Below, in pieces: positions 2,787 through 22,238 of a stretch of 25,045 bases of DNA. Under the pieces are notes generated by a model. It worked only from the letters and a program-made list of their open reading frames with translations, was not told where the DNA came from and made no database searches. Every line of letters begins with the position of its first letter. Within the stretch, counting starts at the first letter, position 1. The stretch comes from a virus (lineage: Duplodnaviria; Caudoviricetes). The translations under genes were made by a program, and so were the position numbers. Location of the stretch: positions 1 to 25,045 of the IMG/VR virus record IMGVR_UViG_3300036784_000118. One strand, given 5' to 3'.

Positions 2787-4355
2787 TCATCCGATAAAGA
2801 ACATCTGATATTCAGGCGCACGCTCGCTTGCTTCGCCTGTACCCATTGCCACCGCCATCGCGGTTGCTACCATTCCATCAATGCGCCCGTTGCTCCGGTC
2901 TTTCGCAAACTTGCGATTGCCCGCCGCATCACTGATCACCGCTGCGTTCGCGGCGCACATCGTGAGCACCGGGTGATTACCGTGGCGCATCTTTCCATCG
3001 AGAAGAAGTGATTCGAACTCGCGCAAGGCTGGCGACATGCTCACCATGCCTTGCCCGAATTCCTGAAATTTCGCGATGTCGCCATCACTGATGCCCGCGC
3101 GTTCAAGCTCGGGCCGTAGAAACTTCATGTTGTAGCGGTCGAAGGCAATCTTGCTGATGTCGTACCGCTCGAAGAGGTCTAACAGTTCGTGCGCGATGAA
3201 TTCATACTTGATCGACTTGCCCGGTGTGAGAAGAAGCAAGCCCTGATTCGCCCACATGTCATAAGGCACCCGGTCTTCGCGGCTCTTCTCTTCGATGCCT
3301 TCTTCAGGTAACCAGAAGCGCGGTTCGATGAACCATTCATTGTTTTCTTCCGGGTCTTGCGCGATCAGTACAAGCGCGGTTAGATCGCTCACCGATGAAA
3401 GATCGAGCCCGCCATACACCACAAGGCCATCGAGATTCGTGCGCCGCGCCTTGCCGTTGATCATCCACGTGGCCGCACTCACGTAGAGGTTTCGCCGCTG
3501 CACGCGCTGATTCAATACAAGGTTGCGATAGTCCGCTTCACGCGAGGGCATGCGCTTCGCGTTCTGTGCGAGCTTGCGCACTTCGTCCTGATTCATGAAC
3601 TCATCGAAGGCCGGATTCGCGGCCCTGATCGCTTCATCGCTGAAGGGGTCCATCTCCACCGGTGCGGTGTACAGGAAAAGCTTCGTTTGCGGGTCCGCAC
3701 CCGTCTTCGCGTCATCAATGAGCACCGATAGAAGATCGGCATCGGTCGGTGCCTGCGTGCTGATGACCACGCTTAGCGGTGATTCGTTGGCCGCACCCGC
3801 CGTTTCAAGCGCTTCATAAAGCTCACTGCGCGGGCCTTTCACCTGCCCTAGCTCGTCGTGCACCGTGAAGACAGGTGAGAGGCCATAGGCCGTGCGCGCA
3901 TCCGCACTCAGTGCCCGATACACCGTGCCGAGTTCGTGACAGTAGAGAACCTTCACCGTTTCACGGATCGTCACGTAAGCATCAAGATCGGTGTTCATCC
4001 TGATCATCTTCACCGCGAGCGCGAAGAGTAATGAAGCCTGATCGCGCGATTGCGCCGCGCTGTATAGCTGCGAATTGATCCGCGCTTCAGGCCCGCACAG
4101 GTGAAGCAATAGAAGCATTGCCATGAGCGCGGTTTTCGAGTTCTTGCGCCCGAAGCTCACGATGGCGAGCCGCGTGGGGCTGTCATAAATGCCCGTGATC
4201 ACCGCACGCTGAAACGTCCGTAACCGTACCTTCTCCCCCGCGTGTTTGCCTTCCGGCACCCGGCAAAACGTCTCTATCCATCGAATGTTCCGCTCGCCAC
4301 GGGTCGGTGTTCGGGGCGTTGCCTTCACGCCGCCGCCGCTTCGCCGTCTTCCCAC
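2787..4355 (-). CDS. terL: terminase large subunit
   Basis: Walker A-like GRKNSKT, Walker B VHDELG, motif III VISTQ, and nuclease motifs GGLDLSSVSDLTA and RIDGMVA. Confidence 0.95.
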   Translation of the reverse strand: MGRRRSGGGVKATPRTPTRGERNIRWIETFCRVPEGKHAGEKVRLRTFQRAVITGIYDSPTRLAIVSFGRKNSKTALMAMLLLLHLCGPEARINSQLYSAAQSRDQASLLFALAVKMIRMNTDLDAYVTIRETVKVLYCHELGTVYRALSADARTAYGLSPVFTVHDELGQVKGPRSELYEALETAGAANESPLSVVISTQAPTDADLLSVLIDDAKTGADPQTKLFLYTAPVEMDPFSDEAIRAANPAFDEFMNQDEVRKLAQNAKRMPSREADYRNLVLNQRVQRRNLYVSAATWMINGKARRTNLDGLVVYGGLDLSSVSDLTALVLIAQDPEENNEWFIEPRFWLPEEGIEEKSREDRVPYDMWANQGLLLLTPGKSIKYEFIAHELLDLFERYDISKIAFDRYNMKFLRPELERAGISDGDIAKFQEFGQGMVSMSPALREFESLLLDGKMRHGNHPVLTMCAANAAVISDAAGNRKFAKDRSNGRIDGMVATAMAVAMGTGEASERAPEYQMFFIG

Positions 4356-6559: not shown

Positions 6560-6578
6560 TTCTGTGATCCGAAGTAAA

Positions 6579-6618
6579 TGATCGGCTTTGATCGCGTGTG
6601 ATCGGCTTTGATCGTCTA
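6579..6618 (+). repeat. 10-bp phased TGATCG array 1
   Basis: TGATCG at 6579, 6589, 6599 and 6609. Confidence 0.9.
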
Positions 6619-6628
6619 ATTCACTTTT

Positions 6629-7511: not shown

Positions 7512-7820
7512 TCACGTTTCCTGTACCGGGTGCGCCGGTTCCGTTGCGGTGGCGGGCTCCCATGCTGGCGCACCCGGTGTCAGAAGCCGCGCTTCGTTGG
7601 CCGGTGGTGGTGCGGGTTGCGCCGGTTGCGCGGGTTGCGCGGGCTCTGCCGGTGGTGCCGGTTGAGCGGGTGCTTCGGCGGGTGCCGGTGCCACAGGTGC
7701 CACAGGTGCCACGGGTGCCACCGGTGCCACAGGCACCACCGGTGCGGTGGGCGCTTGTGGATCGACGGGCGTGGTGGTCGTGGTCGTGGTCTGCGCGGGT
7801 TGCTCATTGCTTGTCATCAC
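7512..7820 (-). CDS. Pro/Ala-rich low-complexity protein
   Basis: GAAGGAG RBS; (PVA)n and (PAQ)n repeats encoded by 9-bp tandem repeats. Fills the operon gap. Confidence 0.55.
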   Translation of the reverse strand: MMTSNEQPAQTTTTTTTPVDPQAPTAPVVPVAPVAPVAPVAPVAPAPAEAPAQPAPPAEPAQPAQPAQPAPPPANEARLLTPGAPAWEPATATEPAHPVQET

Positions 7821-8058
7821 GTGTTACTCCTTCGGTGTGCTTCACCGGGTGGTGAAGATTGGGGTTTGCAGGTGCCGCGCTCACGAGCGCATTGCGTGCG
7901 ATGCGTGCACAGTTGCGCAAGCTCGCGATGCTGTTGCCGCCTTCACCGATGTCGGCAATGATCGCGAGCGCTTCGCGAAGCCGCACGTTATCGGTGGCAA
8001 GGTGGTGCCGCATGTGATCAGAATGCACAAGGCGCATCGTTTCTCGTTTCATCGTCAT
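7804..8058 (-). CDS. hypothetical protein
   Basis: Co-oriented ORF overlapping its neighbours, containing 'NVRLREAL..IA'. Start uncertain. Confidence 0.5.
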   Translation of the reverse strand: MTMKRETMRLVHSDHMRHHLATDNVRLREALAIIADIGEGGNSIASLRNCARIARNALVSAAPANPNLHHPVKHTEGVTRDDKQ

Positions 8059-8518
8059 CTTCGAACTCGAATTCATTCTGCTGCATGGTCATGGGTCGGA
8101 TGCGCACTTCAATGCGCGGGTTGATGCGGTCGATCCGGTGAAGCACGAGCTTGCCGCGCACCTGCCTATCGTTGCGGTAGCACCCGTTTTGCACGAGCGC
8201 CTTCTTCGTGGTGTTCGGCACCTTCGCATAGCGGTCTTGCAAGACATCGAGCACCACCGCTTCATCTAAATCGGGCCTTTCGGATGCATAGAACATCGTG
8301 AGCCGCACGAACACCGGACCCTGAAGACGCACGCGGCACTTCGGCGGAATCTGTCTGAGCGCGTTCGCTTCGAACTCGCGGGCCTTCTCGCTTTTGATCA
8401 CCATCGGCACCTTCACCTTCTTGCCGCCATCGGTGATCTTCGTGCGCGTGACTAGCTCGCGGCTGTTCGCCTTGCTGGCCGCTTCACCGAAAATCGTGAA
8501 TTCGAGCACATCAGGCAT
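8018..8518 (-). CDS. RusA-like Holliday junction resolvase
   Basis: Start MPDVLEFTIFGEAASKANSR, with RPDLDE, NDRQV and PRIEVRI motifs. Confidence 0.8.
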   Translation of the reverse strand: MPDVLEFTIFGEAASKANSRELVTRTKITDGGKKVKVPMVIKSEKAREFEANALRQIPPKCRVRLQGPVFVRLTMFYASERPDLDEAVVLDVLQDRYAKVPNTTKKALVQNGCYRNDRQVRGKLVLHRIDRINPRIEVRIRPMTMQQNEFEFEDDDETRNDAPCAF

Positions 8519-8726
8519 CACGCTCACCTTTCGTGCCGAAGTACGGGATTCGGGGCAAGTCGGCACCGATGATCGTGAAGCACACGATGTGAAGCTTGAG
8601 CACCGGCAAGCGATCAGGCAACACTTCCACATTCGCGCTCGTGATGCCCTGCACGGGCATGTCATCGATGCACACGAGTGGCCGCTCACCGGATAGATCG
8701 AGCGTGAGTACAGGCTTCGGATTCAT
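8511..8726 (-). CDS. hypothetical protein
   Basis: 71 aa from MNPKPVLTLDL, coupled by ATGA to the upstream gene. Confidence 0.5.
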   Translation of the reverse strand: MNPKPVLTLDLSGERPLVCIDDMPVQGITSANVEVLPDRLPVLKLHIVCFTIIGADLPRIPYFGTKGERDA

Positions 8727-9118
8727 CGCATCACCACGTGACGGGCTGAAGATTCGTTGCATGCCGGATCGAGCATCACCGCCACGTAATAGCCCACATT
8801 CGACGGCACCGCGCTCAGGTCTTCAAGGCCGATGAGATAGCCTTGCACCGGTGCACGTGCGCGCGTCACCCGATGCCGGTATGCCGGATGCACGAGATTG
8901 AACATCGCCGTGATCTCGTAAGACACCGTGAGCGCGCTCACCGGCTCCTTGCGTGCGATGAGTTGCACGATGGCACGATAGGCCGCGCCGTGAAGCTCGT
9001 GGCTGAAGTCGTGCGGCCTGAGATGCGGGCAATGGCGGATCATCGCGGGGCTTTTTAGAAGACTCGATAACACGCGCTGTTCGGCACGGGTGCGCCGGTC
9101 GTCTTCGAAGCGGATCAT
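8723..9118 (-). CDS. stand-alone DnaB helicase N-terminal domain protein
   Basis: AEQRVLSSLL...LRPHDFSHELHGAAYRAIVQL...PVSALTV matches the DnaB_N pattern. No ATPase domain is present. Confidence 0.75.
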   Translation of the reverse strand: MIRFEDDRRTRAEQRVLSSLLKSPAMIRHCPHLRPHDFSHELHGAAYRAIVQLIARKEPVSALTVSYEITAMFNLVHPAYRHRVTRARAPVQGYLIGLEDLSAVPSNVGYYVAVMLDPACNESSARHVVMR

Positions 9119-11615: not shown

Positions 11616-11687
11616 TGCCCGATTAAGGCGGGCTTTATGCTTGGATTACTGGCCGGTCATTATTTCGAACCTGATATGAGATTAATA

Positions 11688-11727
11688 TGATCGCCTTTGA
11701 TCGTCTCTGATCGTTAGTGATCGTCTA
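11688..11727 (+). repeat. 10-bp phased TGATCG array 2
   Basis: TGATCG at 11688, 11698, 11708 and 11718. Confidence 0.9.
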
Positions 11728-12112
11728 AATGCACATTCAGTAATTCTTTAATAAGGTGGTCTAGGTGTTTTCACCGATGAAGGAATTACCTGAGTAATTC
11801 ACTAAGGCTTCAGTATTTGCCTTTCCTGATACTGCCGAAAGCGGTGCATAAGCACACACACATAGTGCGTCACCTTTTTTATGCTGCGGTACGGTATGCA
11901 GGAATCCATTCGGAATTCAAACATGTAAGACCCACGCATGTTGCACTGTGCAACACGCCCGCCTTGTGCCTTGCGTGGCGGGTGCTTCGCCGTTCAATCG
12001 TCATGTTAATGATTTACCGCGAGTAAACACAAAAGTGAACACGAGTCGTATTGCGCCGCCGCACGACTTTTCGCGCTTATGTGGGTTCGCATCCTGCGGA
12101 TTGATTGCCGTC

Positions 12113-12319: not shown

Positions 12320-12700
12320 ATGATGAAAATTGCGAACATCGTAATTACGTTATGTGTTGGTGATGAAGACGATTATGCACGCGTGCATCAGGCCATCAAC
12401 ACACTTCAGGCGCTGGTGAGCGAGTCATCACACGACACGAAAAAAGTGCCGATCACGGCTCATGAAGACGCTTTCACAGTGAGCGCTTCACACACTCATG
12501 ATCGTGATGCCGTGCTCGCGGCATCCGTTCGCACCCTGCCGATCAAGACGCGTGCGCATCACGCGCTGATGCTGGCGGGCGTGACTACCATTGCGCACCT
12601 TGTGCGTTTAACCCCTAACCAGTTACGCGAGGTGCATGGCATAGGCCGCGCTGCGGCTCACGCCATTGAACGCGCATTGGATGAACTCCATGTGCGCTAA
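12320..12700 (+). CDS. RNA polymerase alpha-CTD-like domain protein
   Basis: The C-terminal SVRTLPIKTRAHHALMLAGVTTIAHLVRLTPNQLREVHGIGRAAAHAIERAL follows the alpha-CTD helix-hairpin-helix pattern. Confidence 0.7.
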   Translation: MMKIANIVITLCVGDEDDYARVHQAINTLQALVSESSHDTKKVPITAHEDAFTVSASHTHDRDAVLAASVRTLPIKTRAHHALMLAGVTTIAHLVRLTPNQLREVHGIGRAAAHAIERALDELHVR

Positions 12701-12736: not shown

Positions 12737-13615
12737 ATGGCTACACGAATGAAGAAAGCCGAAGGTGTCGAAGAGCTTGATGTTCTCGAAGTAGAACGCC
12801 GGGTGATCACCGTGGCGGTGTTAGGCCGCACGCCGCTGATTATGAATCGACTCGCGGAAAAGGCCCGCCAGCAATTGCTTTTTCCGCCACCGCCGAAGAC
12901 GCGAGCGGACAAGCAAGCGCACTTGAAGCACGAGCCGTTGCGTGAATTTCGCGATTCCACACACCGCATCCCTGATGAGGCGTGCGCCACTTTGTTAGGA
13001 ATGCCCACGGTGGCATTCAAGGCCGCGATGCGCACCGCCGCGCTTGAGATGCCCGGTGTGAGCAAGGCGCAAATCGGTCGCCTTGTCTTCATCGAAGGTT
13101 TGCTTGTGCCGGTGTACGGCATCCCGCAAATTCATTCCACCGTAGTGCGCATGTCGGACCCTGGCCGCACACCGGACATCCGCACGCGTTGCATCGTGCC
13201 GGAATGGGCGTGCTATGTGTCGGTGTCTTTCCTTGAGCCGCACTTACGCGCGAAGACGGTGGGCAAGTTGCTCGCCGCTGCCGGATTCATCGCGGGTGTA
13301 GGTGACTGGCGAAGCGAGAAAGGCAGTGGCAATTATGGGCAATTCGAGATTGTTGGCGAAGACAATGCCGAGTTTCAAGGGCTCATCGCGAACGGTGGCC
13401 GCGCTGCACAGGTGGCCGCGCTGAATGATCCGGTGCCCTTCGACATCGAAACACAGGAATTGCTTTCGTGGTTCGATGCCGAGCTTGATAGGCGCGGGTA
13501 TCGCAAGGGTGATGGCGATACGGTGAATGCGCCGCCCGCCGCCGCGAATGGTGCGACATCATCGCGCCCGCCGAAGAAAAACGCGGTGCTTCTGCCGCCC
13601 CACGATGCTCACTGA
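12737..13615 (+). CDS. stand-alone Cas7/RAMP-like protein (VIPR-like effector)
   Basis: First-strand motif VLGRTPLIMN, helix motif GMPTVAFKAAMR (compare RAMP iPgsslKGalR), and a Gly-rich loop GVGDWRSEKGSGNYGQFEIV. GAGGTG RBS. No other cas genes are in the window. Confidence 0.75.
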   Translation: MATRMKKAEGVEELDVLEVERRVITVAVLGRTPLIMNRLAEKARQQLLFPPPPKTRADKQAHLKHEPLREFRDSTHRIPDEACATLLGMPTVAFKAAMRTAALEMPGVSKAQIGRLVFIEGLLVPVYGIPQIHSTVVRMSDPGRTPDIRTRCIVPEWACYVSVSFLEPHLRAKTVGKLLAAAGFIAGVGDWRSEKGSGNYGQFEIVGEDNAEFQGLIANGGRAAQVAALNDPVPFDIETQELLSWFDAELDRRGYRKGDGDTVNAPPAAANGATSSRPPKKNAVLLPPHDAH

Positions 13616-13627
13616 AGGAGATAGGCA

Positions 13628-14107
13628 ATGACGACACGCGAGCAAAGTGGCGCGGTGCGTGAGCACCTTCTTTCCCTGTGCGATAAGGCACAAGGCAATC
13701 TCACCGCCGATGCGGTGGTGGCCGAAGCCACGAATGAGGCAAGCCCGCTTCATCACCTTTTCGAGTGGGACGATGCGAAGGCCGCACACGCTCACCGGCT
13801 CGATCAGGCGCGCATTCTGTTGCGCGGCATTCACGTGCGCATAGAAACGCACCGCGAAACGTATGAGGTGCCCGCGTTTTGCCGGAACCCTTCGACATCG
13901 CGCGGATATGCACTGGTGAGTACGCTGAGAAGTGACAAGGCCCGCGCTCGTGAAGCATTGCTTCGTGAGTTCGTGAATGCGCGTGGTGCGCTTGAACGTG
14001 CGCGCTCGATGGCGGTGGCATTGGGTCTCGAAGTCGAGATTGAGCGGCTTCTTTTAGGTGTGCTCGATTTAACGCGCGCCACCGAAGAGGCCGAAGCGCT
14101 TGAGTAA
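13628..14107 (+). CDS. conserved accessory protein between the RAMP gene and the array
   Basis: 159 aa with LTADAVVAEA...SPLHHLFEWDDAKAA..HRLDQARILL and AAGGAG RBS. Its stop codon directly abuts the array. Confidence 0.75.
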   Translation: MTTREQSGAVREHLLSLCDKAQGNLTADAVVAEATNEASPLHHLFEWDDAKAAHAHRLDQARILLRGIHVRIETHRETYEVPAFCRNPSTSRGYALVSTLRSDKARAREALLREFVNARGALERARSMAVALGLEVEIERLLLGVLDLTRATEEAEALE

Positions 14108-14715
14108 GGCAGGCATGGCACGGCAAGGCCGGGTGGTGCGTGGCCCGGTGCGGTAAAGGCATGACAGGCTAGGCGTGGCGGGGCGTGGATGGGTCATGCA
14201 CGGTCAGGCCCGGTGAGGCAGGCTAGGCTTGTCCCGGATGGGCGGATTCCGGTCAGGACTGTTGAGGCAGGCGAGGCGAGGCGTGGCAAGGCGAGCACTG
14301 GCCGGGTGAGACAAGGCGCGGCATGGCAGGCAAGGCAGTGCTAGGCATGCATGGGTGATTCTGGCGAGGCAAGGCAGGCGGGGCAAGGCGTGGGCTGGTA
14401 AGGCGCGGACGGGAAGGGCATGGCGCGGCGCGGTTCGGCAGGCAAGGCCCGGTGCGGATCGGTTAGGCGCGGTCTGGTTCGGCAAGGCGCGGCACGGCGC
14501 GATATGACAGGCATGGCATGGTTCGGATTGTTCTAGCGTGGCACCGGATCGGAATGGCAGGCGGGGCGAGGGTCGGCGTGGTGCTGAGTGTTGCGGTGGT
14601 GCCCGGTCTGCAAAGGCGTGGCGGGGCGTGGGTGGGCAAGGCAGGCGAGGCTGGGGATGGTGCGGTTAGGCGCGTCTGGGCGAGGTTTGGCAGGCATATT
14701 TGAGTAGGCAGGCAT
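14108..14715 (+). ncRNA. GGY-NN pentamer array; putative multi-guide RNA of 10 units
   Basis: About 108 pentamers, about 77 starting with GGC/GGT by manual count. They are split into 10 units of 9-16 pentamers by 4-nt G(G/A)CA punctuation. No credible ORF. Confidence 0.8.
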
Positions 14716-14731
14716 CAGGGAGAAAACTACT

Positions 14732-15643
14732 ATGGATCGCGAAGCATTTTTGACTGAACGAATGAAGGGTATCGGCGGTGCTGATGCTGCGTGTGCATTG
14801 GGTCTTGATCCATACCGCACGCAGCGTGAGCTTTGGTCTCTTAAAACGGGAGAGATTCAAGACGACTTTGAAGATAATCGTTTTACGCGAGCGGGCCGCG
14901 TGCTCGAAGCCGCGATTGCGGATTTATACGCTGAGCAATTCGGCGTGACGTTGCGCAAGCGCATGGTGCCGGTGGTGCATCCGAAGTATCCCTTCATGCG
15001 TGGCAATCTTGATCGAACCATCACCGGACGGCGTTCGGTTCTGGAAATTAAAAACGTTGATTCGCTCGTGCATCGCACATCCGGTGAGTGGGGCGAGCCG
15101 GACACCGATCAGGTGCCACTTCGATACATGGTGCAAATCCGGCATTACTTAATTATCACCGGCTTCGAAGTCGGTTTTTTAGGTGCGCTTGTCGGTGGCA
15201 ATAATTTGCTTCGCTATGTGATCGAACGGGATCACGAAGCCGAAGATTTTATTGTGCAAGCCGAAGCGGACTTCTGGCGCATGGTCGAAAAGCGCGAGCC
15301 GCCTGAGTTCGACTATGCGCACGCGAGCACCTTGGGTTTGCTGAAGCGCCTGCATCCGGGAAGCAATGGATTGAGCAAGCCGCTCAGTGATGAAGCGCTC
15401 GCATGGCATCAGAAGATCGAAGACGCGAGCGCGCAAATCAAGATGCTCGAAGCGCTGAAAGCCGAAGGCAAGTCGCACATCCTGAAAGAGCTTGCGGGTT
15501 ATGGCTTCGGCACGTTCGCGAGCGGTGGCGAGTATCGCTATCGGGAAATTGAGCGTGCGGCCTTCGAGGTGAAGGCGAGCAAGTATCAGGATTTGCGCTT
15601 CTGCAAAAATCAAACGAAGCCCAACACTGCGCGAGGTGCGTGA
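14732..15643 (+). CDS. YqaJ-like (lambda exonuclease family) viral recombination nuclease
   Basis: RMKGIGGADAACALGLDPYRT, G..LE, HPKYPFMRGNLDR, LEIKN and VPLRYMVQIRHY motifs. Confidence 0.92.
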   Translation: MDREAFLTERMKGIGGADAACALGLDPYRTQRELWSLKTGEIQDDFEDNRFTRAGRVLEAAIADLYAEQFGVTLRKRMVPVVHPKYPFMRGNLDRTITGRRSVLEIKNVDSLVHRTSGEWGEPDTDQVPLRYMVQIRHYLIITGFEVGFLGALVGGNNLLRYVIERDHEAEDFIVQAEADFWRMVEKREPPEFDYAHASTLGLLKRLHPGSNGLSKPLSDEALAWHQKIEDASAQIKMLEALKAEGKSHILKELAGYGFGTFASGGEYRYREIERAAFEVKASKYQDLRFCKNQTKPNTARGA

Positions 15644-16746
15644 TGAGTGACATTGTGAATCCCTTCGGCGCTGAGCCGAAAAATTCAGGCGGCGCGGTGG
15701 CCGCGAATGAAGCACAGCGTGCGGTGAGCGAGGTGCAAGCGGCCTTGATCATCGCGCATCACATGCCGCGCGATCAGAAGCGCTCAATGGATCGCATCAT
15801 CAACGAGTGCACGCGTGAAGGCCTTGCCGCCGAAGCTACCTATGAGTATGCGCGGGGTGGCAATTCGATCACCGGCCCATCGATCCGCCTGGCTGAAACG
15901 GCGGCGCGCAATTGGGGCAATTTCGAATCAGGCGTGAAAGAGATTGCGCGGCATGCGGGGTGGTCTGAATGTCAAGCTTATGCTTGGGATCTAGAAACGA
16001 ACACGCGCGAGGTGCGAAGCTTCGCGGTGCGCCACATCCGGGACACCAAGCAAGGCCCGAAGCCGGTGACGGAAGAGCGCGATATTTACGAGTTGACGGC
16101 AAATTATGGCGCACGCCGCAAGCGCGCTTGCATCATCTCGCTCATCCCCGGCGATGTGTGGGCCTGTGCGCTTACGCAAGTTGATGCCACGCTCAAGATC
16201 AAGCTCGATGTCACGCCTGAATTGCTCGCGCAAATGCTTGAGCGCTTCGCGGCCTTCGGTGTCACGAAGGCGATGATCGAAGCGCGCGAGCAAAGAAGGC
16301 TTGATTCGATTTCGCCCGCTGCCGCTCATCGCTTGCGCCGTATTTATAACTCGCTGAAGGATGGCATCAGTGAGCCGAGTGAATGGTTCGATCTGAGCAT
16401 TGCGCCCGCTGATGGCAAGCCCGCGCAAAGGTCATCCACCGAAGTGATGAAGGAGACGATGAAGGCACGCGGCTCATCCACACCCGCCGCGAAGAAGACC
16501 ACCGCGAAGCCGAAGGATAAGGCCGCGCCGCCACCGGCTGAAGAAGCGGATGCACCCACCTATGCGAGCGTGCGTGATGCGCTTGAGCACGCGAAGAGCG
16601 TGGCCGAATTGGGCACCGCTGGCGATCTCATCGAGAGCATCGCGGATGTCGATCAGCGTGAAGAGCTTGGTGCGATTCTCGATGCCCGCCTTCATGAATT
16701 CGAAGAGGCCGGTGATGATGGCCGCGATCCGGGCGAGCCATCATGA
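15640..16746 (+). CDS. conserved phage protein, putative single-strand annealing partner of YqaJ
   Basis: Coupled to yqaJ, with GPSIRLAE..ARNWGN, AYAWDLETN and ARR.RACI motifs. Function is inferred from position only. Confidence 0.55.
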   Translation: MMSDIVNPFGAEPKNSGGAVAANEAQRAVSEVQAALIIAHHMPRDQKRSMDRIINECTREGLAAEATYEYARGGNSITGPSIRLAETAARNWGNFESGVKEIARHAGWSECQAYAWDLETNTREVRSFAVRHIRDTKQGPKPVTEERDIYELTANYGARRKRACIISLIPGDVWACALTQVDATLKIKLDVTPELLAQMLERFAAFGVTKAMIEAREQRRLDSISPAAAHRLRRIYNSLKDGISEPSEWFDLSIAPADGKPAQRSSTEVMKETMKARGSSTPAAKKTTAKPKDKAAPPPAEEADAPTYASVRDALEHAKSVAELGTAGDLIESIADVDQREELGAILDARLHEFEEAGDDGRDPGEPS

Positions 16747-18913: not shown

Positions 18914-18914
18914 G

Positions 18915-18964
18915 TGATCGCTCCTGATCGGCTGTGATTCGCTGTGATCGTCTGTGATCGTTAT
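18915..18964 (+). repeat. 10-bp phased TGATCG array 3
   Basis: TGATCG at 18915, 18925, 18945 and 18955, with TGATTC at 18935. Overlaps the RBS of the AlpA-like gene. Confidence 0.9.
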
Positions 18965-19033
18965 TGAAGCCTTCCGGGTGGCTGAAGTGAAGTTAAAAAC
19001 ACCAATCGACAGAGGCGCGCGCCGATTGCGCCT

Positions 19034-20789: not shown

Positions 20790-20866
20790 CGTCTTTCCTT
20801 CACAGGGTCGGCGTGGGTAAAGGGTGCGCCGTACCTGTTATTTGTGGGTGTTCCAGTGAGCTTCTG

Positions 20867-20896
20867 TGATCGTCTGTGATCGTCTGTGATCGAGAT
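20867..20896 (+). repeat. 10-bp phased TGATCG array 4
   Basis: TGATCG at 20867, 20877 and 20887, plus a degenerate TGAGCT at 20857. Confidence 0.9.
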
Positions 20897-20995
20897 AAGA
20901 AACCCGCGAAGCCTTATGGGTCGGGCTCTGAGGCCCGCCACACAAGGGTGAGCGGCAATTATACGCGCTAATTCTCGATAAGCATACATCCCTTG

Positions 20996-21025
20996 TGATC
21001 GGCTTTGATCGGCTTTGATCGTCTC
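20996..21025 (+). repeat. 10-bp phased TGATCG array 5
   Basis: TGATCG at 20996, 21006 and 21016, just upstream of a minus-strand TATAAT (20963-20958). Confidence 0.9.
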
Positions 21026-21109
21026 TACCCCCGCCGTCTACCCGATTTTTTCGCAAAACCCACACCTTGCCCCTACGCCGCGATTCGCGGTGCGCCCCGT
21101 GTTAAGCGG

Positions 21110-21166: not shown

Positions 21167-21206
21167 CGTTTGATTGATCGAGAGACAAACTAGAGGGCAC
21201 CGAGAT

Positions 21207-22238
21207 ATGCCGTATGGAATCGAGCTTGAAGACGTGCGCTATGAGGTTGACGCGCACGGCAATCGCACCCGCGCCATCCTGCCGCTCACGATGTTCACCG
21301 CGCTCACTGAATTCTGGATTGCTGCGCGCCGCGCTCAAACCGCGCAAATCGAAGCCACCACCAAGCCGGGAAAATTCAAGACATCGCTGAGCGCTGCCGC
21401 GCCATCAGGCCGCGAGGATGAAGCGGACCCACCCGCGCCGAGCGCGCCGCCATTCAAACATGATCAGCACTGGCAAAACCTTATCGAACGACTACCCGAA
21501 GCCGCCCATCCATCACCCGCATCATCGGCATCGATCTTCACACCACACGCATCACCGGCACCCGCGCAAGCAAAGCCACGGAATCATCAAACCTTCTACC
21601 CGCGTGAGTTCGTTGCGCCGATACCTGATGAGGTTGCCGCGCTGATCGGGCAAGGTGTGTATTTCCTGAAGGCGTGGCGCATGTATCGCGGCCTGACGTT
21701 CGCAGATATCACCGATCTCATCGGCAAATCCAAAGGCGCGATCCAGTATTTCGATTATGGATACCTGAAGCCCACCACGAAGACGCTTGAGCAATTCGCC
21801 CTTGTGTTCGATTGCACGCTTGATCAGCTAACGGTAAAACCCAAAACGAACACACAGGCATGGCTGAAGGTCATCGGCACACCGGCACCCGTGGCCGAAG
21901 AGTTCGCCCCTGAAGACACCGATTACCCTGATCGTGTGCTTCACGCGATGATCGACGGCAAGACACCGCTTCTTGCATGGCGCTTGTATCGCGGTTGGTC
22001 GCTCGCTGATCTGGCGGGCAAGTATGGTGATCGGGTCACCGAAGCCGCCATCAAGAAGCTCGAAGGCGAGCGCACCCTAAGCGCGAAGACACGTGCGAAG
22101 CTCGCGCCGATCCTGAAGTGCACGCCGGTGCAATTGCTCAAACCCGAAGGCTTGGTGATCGAGAAGCGCGAGCGCTATCACGAAGAGTCACCCACGAGCC
22201 GCCGCATCACTCAGGCCATGATGAGCACAGGCCGCTGA
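21207..22238 (+). CDS. tandem XRE-HTH regulator, antitoxin-like
   Basis: Two modules, 'PDEV...G..FLKAWRMYRGLTFADI' and 'PDRV...GKTPLLAWRLYRGWSLADLA'. GAGGG RBS before ATG 21207. Confidence 0.75.
   Translation: MPYGIELEDVRYEVDAHGNRTRAILPLTMFTALTEFWIAARRAQTAQIEATTKPGKFKTSLSAAAPSGREDEADPPAPSAPPFKHDQHWQNLIERLPEAAHPSPASSASIFTPHASPAPAQAKPRNHQTFYPREFVAPIPDEVAALIGQGVYFLKAWRMYRGLTFADITDLIGKSKGAIQYFDYGYLKPTTKTLEQFALVFDCTLDQLTVKPKTNTQAWLKVIGTPAPVAEEFAPEDTDYPDRVLHAMIDGKTPLLAWRLYRGWSLADLAGKYGDRVTEAAIKKLEGERTLSAKTRAKLAPILKCTPVQLLKPEGLVIEKRERYHEESPTSRRITQAMMSTGR

Follow-up and report, generated by a model that had tools for sequence, protein, structure and literature searches.

A VIPR-type guide likely aimed at predicted annealing-protein genes of other phages nearly matches its owner's copy

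Is a guide RNA that nearly matches a gene of the phage encoding it directed against that phage, or against relatives that carry other versions of the same gene? The question is raised by the tenth unit of a guide array in the DNA analysed here (the window; 25,045 nucleotides), which is the whole of a 25-kb virus record and encodes an integrase as well as head and replication functions. VIPR systems are recently described gene silencers that resemble CRISPR. In the published examples, as far as the available portions of the reports describe them, the guide pairs with DNA through its NN dinucleotides, passing over a single target base between one dinucleotide and the next, and binding, on either strand, represses transcription (10.64898/2026.04.26.720920); natural SUSP1 targets are stated to average 89%.

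The vipr, vap, array, yqaJ and target elements lie on one strand, head to tail and abutting [Table 1]. The AlphaFold model of the vipr-like product retrieves Csm3/Cas7 RAMP chains as its best Foldseek matches (E 3.4e-5), and 711 homologues of the gene were found. The G-loop takes the form G-x-G-D-W-R, with G187, G189, D190 and R192 invariant in 62 sequences, and has the same D-W-R order as D177-W178-R179 of SUSP1 Vipr in the available text, a comparison of unaligned motifs. Of 82 vipr loci, 81 have a homologue of the vap-like gene next to vipr, and the protein encoded here shares 45% identity with the copy in a Paraburkholderia nemoris prophage. Clean units of the array hold 9 to 16 GGY/NN repeats, some with degenerate scaffolds, and units 1, 5 and 8 show register slips close to their ends. 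The P. nemoris prophage (locus L055, positions 7610-9100) has the identical order vipr-vap-array-yqaJ-target gene; its array is shorter and its guides differ, the array-end motif before yqaJ being in common.

Table 1. Features of the window discussed in the text
Feature	Position	Strand	Remarks
vipr-like gene	12737..13615	+	RAMP fold (model); G-loop GVGDWRSEKGSGNYGQF; Vipr of 292 aa
vap-like accessory gene	13628..14107	+	159 aa; adjoins vipr
GGY-NN guide array	14108..14706	+	10 units; G[GA]CAGGC anchors between units, register shifted
Unit 4	14266..14324	+	spells a DEVKDLRDKA-type motif from a phage gene that has no copy in the contig
Unit 10	14644..14688	+	nine 5-mers; guide GA TG AT GC TA GC TG GA TT
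Array end and yqaJ ribosome-binding site	14689..14731	+	motif TCAGGGAGAAAAC, also in P. nemoris prophage L055
yqaJ, YqaJ/RecE-like exonuclease gene	14732..15643	+	PF09588, E 2e-28; phrog_434
Candidate single-strand annealing protein gene (target gene)	15643..16746	+	367 aa; phrog_3657; ORF 15640-16746 of the earlier note
Codon-atypical patch, about codons 103-118 of the target gene	15949..15996	+	overlaps the near-target
Resident near-target, codons 109-117, ECQAYAWDL	15967..15993	+	15/18 read bases, in frame

Recognised from DNA alone and from a predicted structure, the RAMP fold and G-loop, the adjacent vap, the GGY/NN units and the skip-code targets identify the locus as a VIPR system, another member of this group, in which unit 10 appears to work like a VIPR guide. 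The best named homologues (52-62%) come from Paraburkholderia and Caballeronia, which makes a Burkholderiaceae host plausible. As in SUSP1 and in the type II system of a P. fulva prophage (10.64898/2026.04.26.720920, 10.64898/2026.04.26.720927), so far as the available text describes them, a phage-borne vipr is accompanied by a small accessory gene and a GGY/NN array, with a 1-nt skip and a wobble-aligned coding target in other phages. The present locus differs from these accounts in its register-shifting anchors, which link one unit to the next, and in that individual units show no tail of their own, an arrangement which by description resembles the staggered arrays of fig. S18 of the VIPR paper. 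It differs further in the length of its Vipr, and in a self match of 83% where 10.64898/2026.04.26.720920, in its available portions, calls targets from 80% and reports no self match at that level.

Other features of the record include a small ORF upstream of vipr (12320-12700), whose product has a domain like the alpha-CTD of RNA polymerase (PF03118, E 1e-7), and, beyond the integrase, a double-HTH protein (21174-22238) and a CxxCxxCC protein (PF03692; 22575-23300). Tandem repeats of 10 nt that share a TGATCG core form five clusters (6578-6619, 11687-11728, 18914-18975, 20856-20897 and 20975-21036), which are mostly intergenic, and two of them flank the integrase region; they are possibly binding sites.

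Unit 10, its near-match in the resident gene and homologous sites in other phages

Unit 10 is composed of the 5-mers GGC-GA GGC-TG GGG-AT GGT-GC GGT-TA GGC-GC GTC-TG GGC-GA GGT-TT, with GGY scaffolds in seven of the nine. The repeat at 14654-14658, which carries the double mismatch described below, has GGG in place of GGY; purines are excluded from the third scaffold pocket according to the available part of the VIPR structure paper. Read with the wobble base skipped, the unit matches the target gene, 1.3 kb downstream of the guide, in frame at seven of nine dinucleotides or 15 of 18 bases (83%), as the earlier note had claimed. This is its top match in the window when both strands and skips of 0 to 3 are considered, the second-best at skip 1 reaching 13 bases. 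The two mismatches of which that note spoke hold as dinucleotides (AT against CA, TT against CT) and amount to three bases.

Permuted versions of unit 10 obtained seven dinucleotides and 15 bases in 0.17% of 3000 trials, and draws from the dinucleotide pool of the array equalled the self-match in 0.7%. When any of nine units was allowed, 500 trials gave as good a match in 1.6% of cases by dinucleotide fraction and in 5.6% by base fraction, in line with the few percent estimated earlier; any sub-window of nine dinucleotides in the array did so in 13.7% of 300 trials. The self-match of unit 10, taken alone, is a chance event of 2-14% array-wide, which is no more than suggestive and by itself unconvincing, and we count it as above chance because the homologue data add to it.

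The exact 18-base gapped pattern occurs in three stretches of IMG/VR, one of which contains in-frame stop codons; the other two fall on the corresponding codons of homologues with 54% identity, where they spell ECIAYAWDL. A perfect gapped match in homologues had been predicted from the window, as had Ile or Met at the third codon, and both predictions were borne out, with Ile in the perfect-match homologues and Met in the clade of the closest relative (P0003, 71%), which reads ECMAYAWDL. Over 208 homologous DNA sites (175 distinct; 212 loci), two score 18, eight 17, fourteen 16 and one 15, the 17/18 alleles including those of Caballeronia and Paraburkholderia prophages with yqaJ adjoining. Since a site chosen by its resident match makes some similarity to homologues automatic, loci picked by the pattern were removed; in the resulting set of 192 distinct homologues seven score 17/18 and 20 score at least 16, counts that random three-mismatch variants reach in 0.2-0.6% of 1500 trials, the values for these two counts being 0.2% and 0.33%. 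The mismatches of unit 10 coincide with the two codons that vary most within the motif, where the guide letters spell residues of the family, and its natural letters at these codons rank first among 54 alternatives. Used as a guide, the resident allele scores 17 in six of the 192 genes against seven for unit 10, and at least 16 in 13 against 20.

Among 204 guides from related loci, only unit 10 attains 0.9 against 195 homologues, two pattern-selected loci included. Four of seven matches with at most two mismatches fell at the homologous site in five selected genomes (control, 0); in 213 genomes of the genus Paraburkholderia, at most one mismatch being allowed, there was one match, at the homologous site, against two for the reversed control. 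Because the perfect-match homologues are distant (54% protein identity, with one locus at 39% GC against 59% here), the phages that carry them are probably not the real competitor. Altogether, these comparisons indicate that the target of unit 10 is very probably the set of homologues of the likely annealing-protein gene.

The likely annealing protein and the proposed silencing of rivals

The target gene has no Pfam match, phrog_3657 is without annotated function, and a search of the ESM Atlas returned unnamed clusters alone. Compared with the PDB, the model of its product places RAD52 on top (prob 0.95 but E 0.03); compared with BFVD, it retrieves recombination protein, Erf, Rad52/59/22 and Bet (E 3e-6 to 7e-4). 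In VIA-align, residues 32-187 were superposed with RAD52 (Z 6.0, rmsd 5.9, 136 aligned) and residues 185-264 with the C-terminal domain of Red-beta (Z 6.1, rmsd 3.2, 62 aligned), both scores falling below the Z 8 from which the tool is trusted, and the C-terminus matched many helical bundles besides Red-beta. Some GenBank homologues are annotated as RecT-like, RecE-linked or ssDNA binding. Because the gene lies behind that of an exonuclease, has RecT-like names in GenBank and gives Rad52-type structural matches, its product is likely an annealing protein of the Rad52/Red-beta superfamily and a partner of YqaJ. The resemblance to known pairs of Rad52/Red-beta/Erf/Sak proteins with YqaJ/RecE lies in the position behind yqaJ and, in the model, in a putative Rad52-like fold at the N-terminus and a putative Red-beta-like domain at the C-terminus; the absent Pfam match and weak structural scores set the protein apart from them. 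No internal promoter was called by promoter prediction at the near-target site.

Unit 10 likely silences rivals, and we hold as probable the whole explanation by which, as a VIPR guide, it would silence the annealing-protein gene of related competing phages. The vipr-vap-array locus, with its predicted RAMP fold and its GGY-NN units, would supply the machinery. Unit 10 spells codon positions 1 and 2 of EC[IM]AYAWD[LF], passing over the wobble base, and alleles that match it perfectly or at 17/18 exist at the homologous site. Following the VIPR papers, in their available text, Vipr would coat the RNA, the NN bases would pair with a single strand of the DNA, in this case the template, and transcription would be repressed. 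A block inside the annealing-protein gene should cut the rival's recombination together with its downstream early genes. The resident allele, selected or merely inherited, would be tolerated through its mismatches, which is the weakest step of the mechanism; the three mismatches may weaken binding of the guide to the owner's copy and spare the owner.

A parallel is offered by the vrRNA4 guide of SUSP1, which, in the available text of Lopez et al. (10.64898/2026.10.15.759431), lies on a codon-phased motif of the F5 satellite recombinase. Both guides address a conserved stretch of a recombination gene in codon phase, and in both phages guides are known with self scores below their non-self scores. 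The vrRNA4 target, however, is a satellite excision recombinase of which the phage has no copy, whereas the owner of unit 10 has a copy of the likely annealing protein that the unit addresses. Likewise, the self-sparing described for SUSP1, in which vrRNA-targeting guides score lower on self than on non-self, pertains to guides against vrRNA loci, in contrast to the present guide against a likely annealing-protein gene. The literature search yielded nothing on a VIPR guide RNA and a phage annealing protein together, and a term search of three VIPR preprints, in the portions available, found no test of mismatch tolerance. The VIPR system and its code have been published, as have self-scores that are lower, and the advance made here is incremental unless an escape by patch exchange holds; particular to the unit 10 case are a self match that exceeds the published threshold, a series of natural alleles and a possible patch. 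The series of alleles at 18, 17, 16 and 15 of 18 at one site could be used to study mismatch tolerance and self/non-self discrimination by VIPR, and homologous-recombination genes common to guide owner and rival would be an added class of VIPR targets.

The resident allele and alternative readings

The tolerance of the resident allele could be the outcome of an active escape, a refinement of the preferred explanation rather than its opposite, in which the ancestor's gene was a 17-18/18 target and a short patch was replaced, gaining Gln and a CT leucine codon, possibly by recombination through the phage's own exonuclease/annealing pair. Codon 3 of the motif is Met in the five nearest proteins and Gln in one of 89 'EC' proteins, the resident; read from these proteins, Met is ancestral in the clade and the Met-to-Gln change private to the resident. 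The ECQ allele was present at none of 29 'EC' DNA sites, though ECQAYAWD had been a scan pattern. Gln is tolerated at this codon in the wider family, in which it occurs at 53 of 175 sites as the second commonest residue.

The near-target overlaps the part of the gene where codon usage is most unusual: of its 359 codon windows, the one starting at codon 106 ranks as the most atypical, and it is third among 4928 in 18 genes, the footprint of the near-target itself ranking 49th. Eight of the nine footprint codons end in A or T, and none of 134 GC-rich homologues has at least eight such codons there, but the observation was made post hoc and 17 of 4928 windows, in four genes, are equally A/T-rich. 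A family-wide A/T bias at the site was considered and rejected, the mean being 0.22 at the site against 0.22 in the gene. Skipped bases give no escape, and their change therefore suggests hitch-hiking on an imported patch, for which, however, no donor was found among 182 sites (best, 30 of 39 bases). Moreover, the resident differs from the rest in 27 of 198 columns, a rate at which one change per nine codons is expected, and the footprint was rejected as a substitution hotspot of the clade, as many events occurring in 74 of 228 (or 102 of 228) windows. Two soil-metagenome DNA runs, which may be the source, showed no alternative letters indicative of strain variation. The escape of the resident copy asserted in the earlier note is not established, the match still standing at 83%, above the 80% cut-off, and the footprint being no hotspot; selected escape is possible but, in our judgement, doubtful. 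That the phage is armed against a kin recombinase and immune through a short foreign patch at the target, probably swapped by the same recombinase, is unlikely; if true, VIPR guide and patched allele would together make up a kin-discrimination module. In two close relative clusters (P0002, P0241, P0004, P0242) the motif reads EAMSYAWDL; two of the read positions that are conserved elsewhere are changed there, which is not significant as a hotspot.

Alternatively, the 15/18 match may still bind, in which case unit 10 would act as a delayed, partial roadblock on the owner's recombination operon. We regard such autoregulation as improbable given that the guide suits the alleles of other phages better than that of its owner, even though 83% exceeds the cut-off of the VIPR paper and REP decoys are described at 0.72-1 identity. 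The co-oriented, abutting arrangement of the genes from vipr to the target and the coincidence of the double mismatch with the GGG scaffold would fit a roadblock; the published guides, as far as the available text goes, have no self matches at or above 80%, and neither the L055 prophage nor locus L214, both of which carry vipr and the target gene, has a self match of at least 0.8 with its parsed guides. Finally, that unit 10 aims elsewhere and matches a conserved motif incidentally is very improbable and largely refuted: the array-wide estimate given above, the chance rate of self matches at 0.83 or more among related guides (below) and the automatic resemblance of homologues to any near-match of a conserved motif are compatible with it, but the placement of the mismatches on the two most variable codons, with letters that spell family residues, and the location of two of the three exact matches in the whole viral collection at the homologous site are not readily so.

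Other guides of the array and of related loci

Exact scans of the viral collection covered units 2, 4, 7 and 10, and skips other than 1 were compared within the window alone. The first 10 of the 11 dinucleotides of unit 4 have 11 exact matches in IMG/VR, 10 of them in one protein family, with a codon-phased, sense-strand reading of the DEVKDLRDKA motif; four of the matches lie in yqaJ-bearing loci, and the 11th dinucleotide is fully matched in none of the 11. No homologue of this family was found within the window. In 401 Burkholderiaceae genomes, five of six unit 4 matches with at most two mismatches fell in the same family, against none for the reversed-pattern control. Unit 4 provides support for the skip-one code that is independent of unit 10. 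Its target is an unannotated phage gene, which in locus L294 lies directly upstream of replication genes, with yqaJ on the opposite strand. Unit 2 and the first 10 of the 13 dinucleotides of unit 7 gave no exact IMG/VR match, and units 1-9 performed no better than permuted guides against 292 loci.

The related guides comprise 204 distinct guides from 53 loci, the loci being pieces of at most 20 kb; about one quarter of the 82 loci yielded no guide to the parser, which also failed to pick up units 3 and 5 of the present array. Seven of these guides have self matches at 0.80 or above against 3.05 expected, and one, unit 10, at 0.83 or above against 0.85 expected. Self near-matching as a general rule among VIPR guides was rejected on this chance rate at the higher threshold. 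When 197 foreign guides were compared with the window, three reached at least 0.83 against 1.3 expected, and none 0.87. A guide of locus L215, at position 3446, matches its own locus at 16 of 20 bases in codon phase (LTMAYADIYN), none of 40 permutations equalling it, and is a possible similar case of self near-match.
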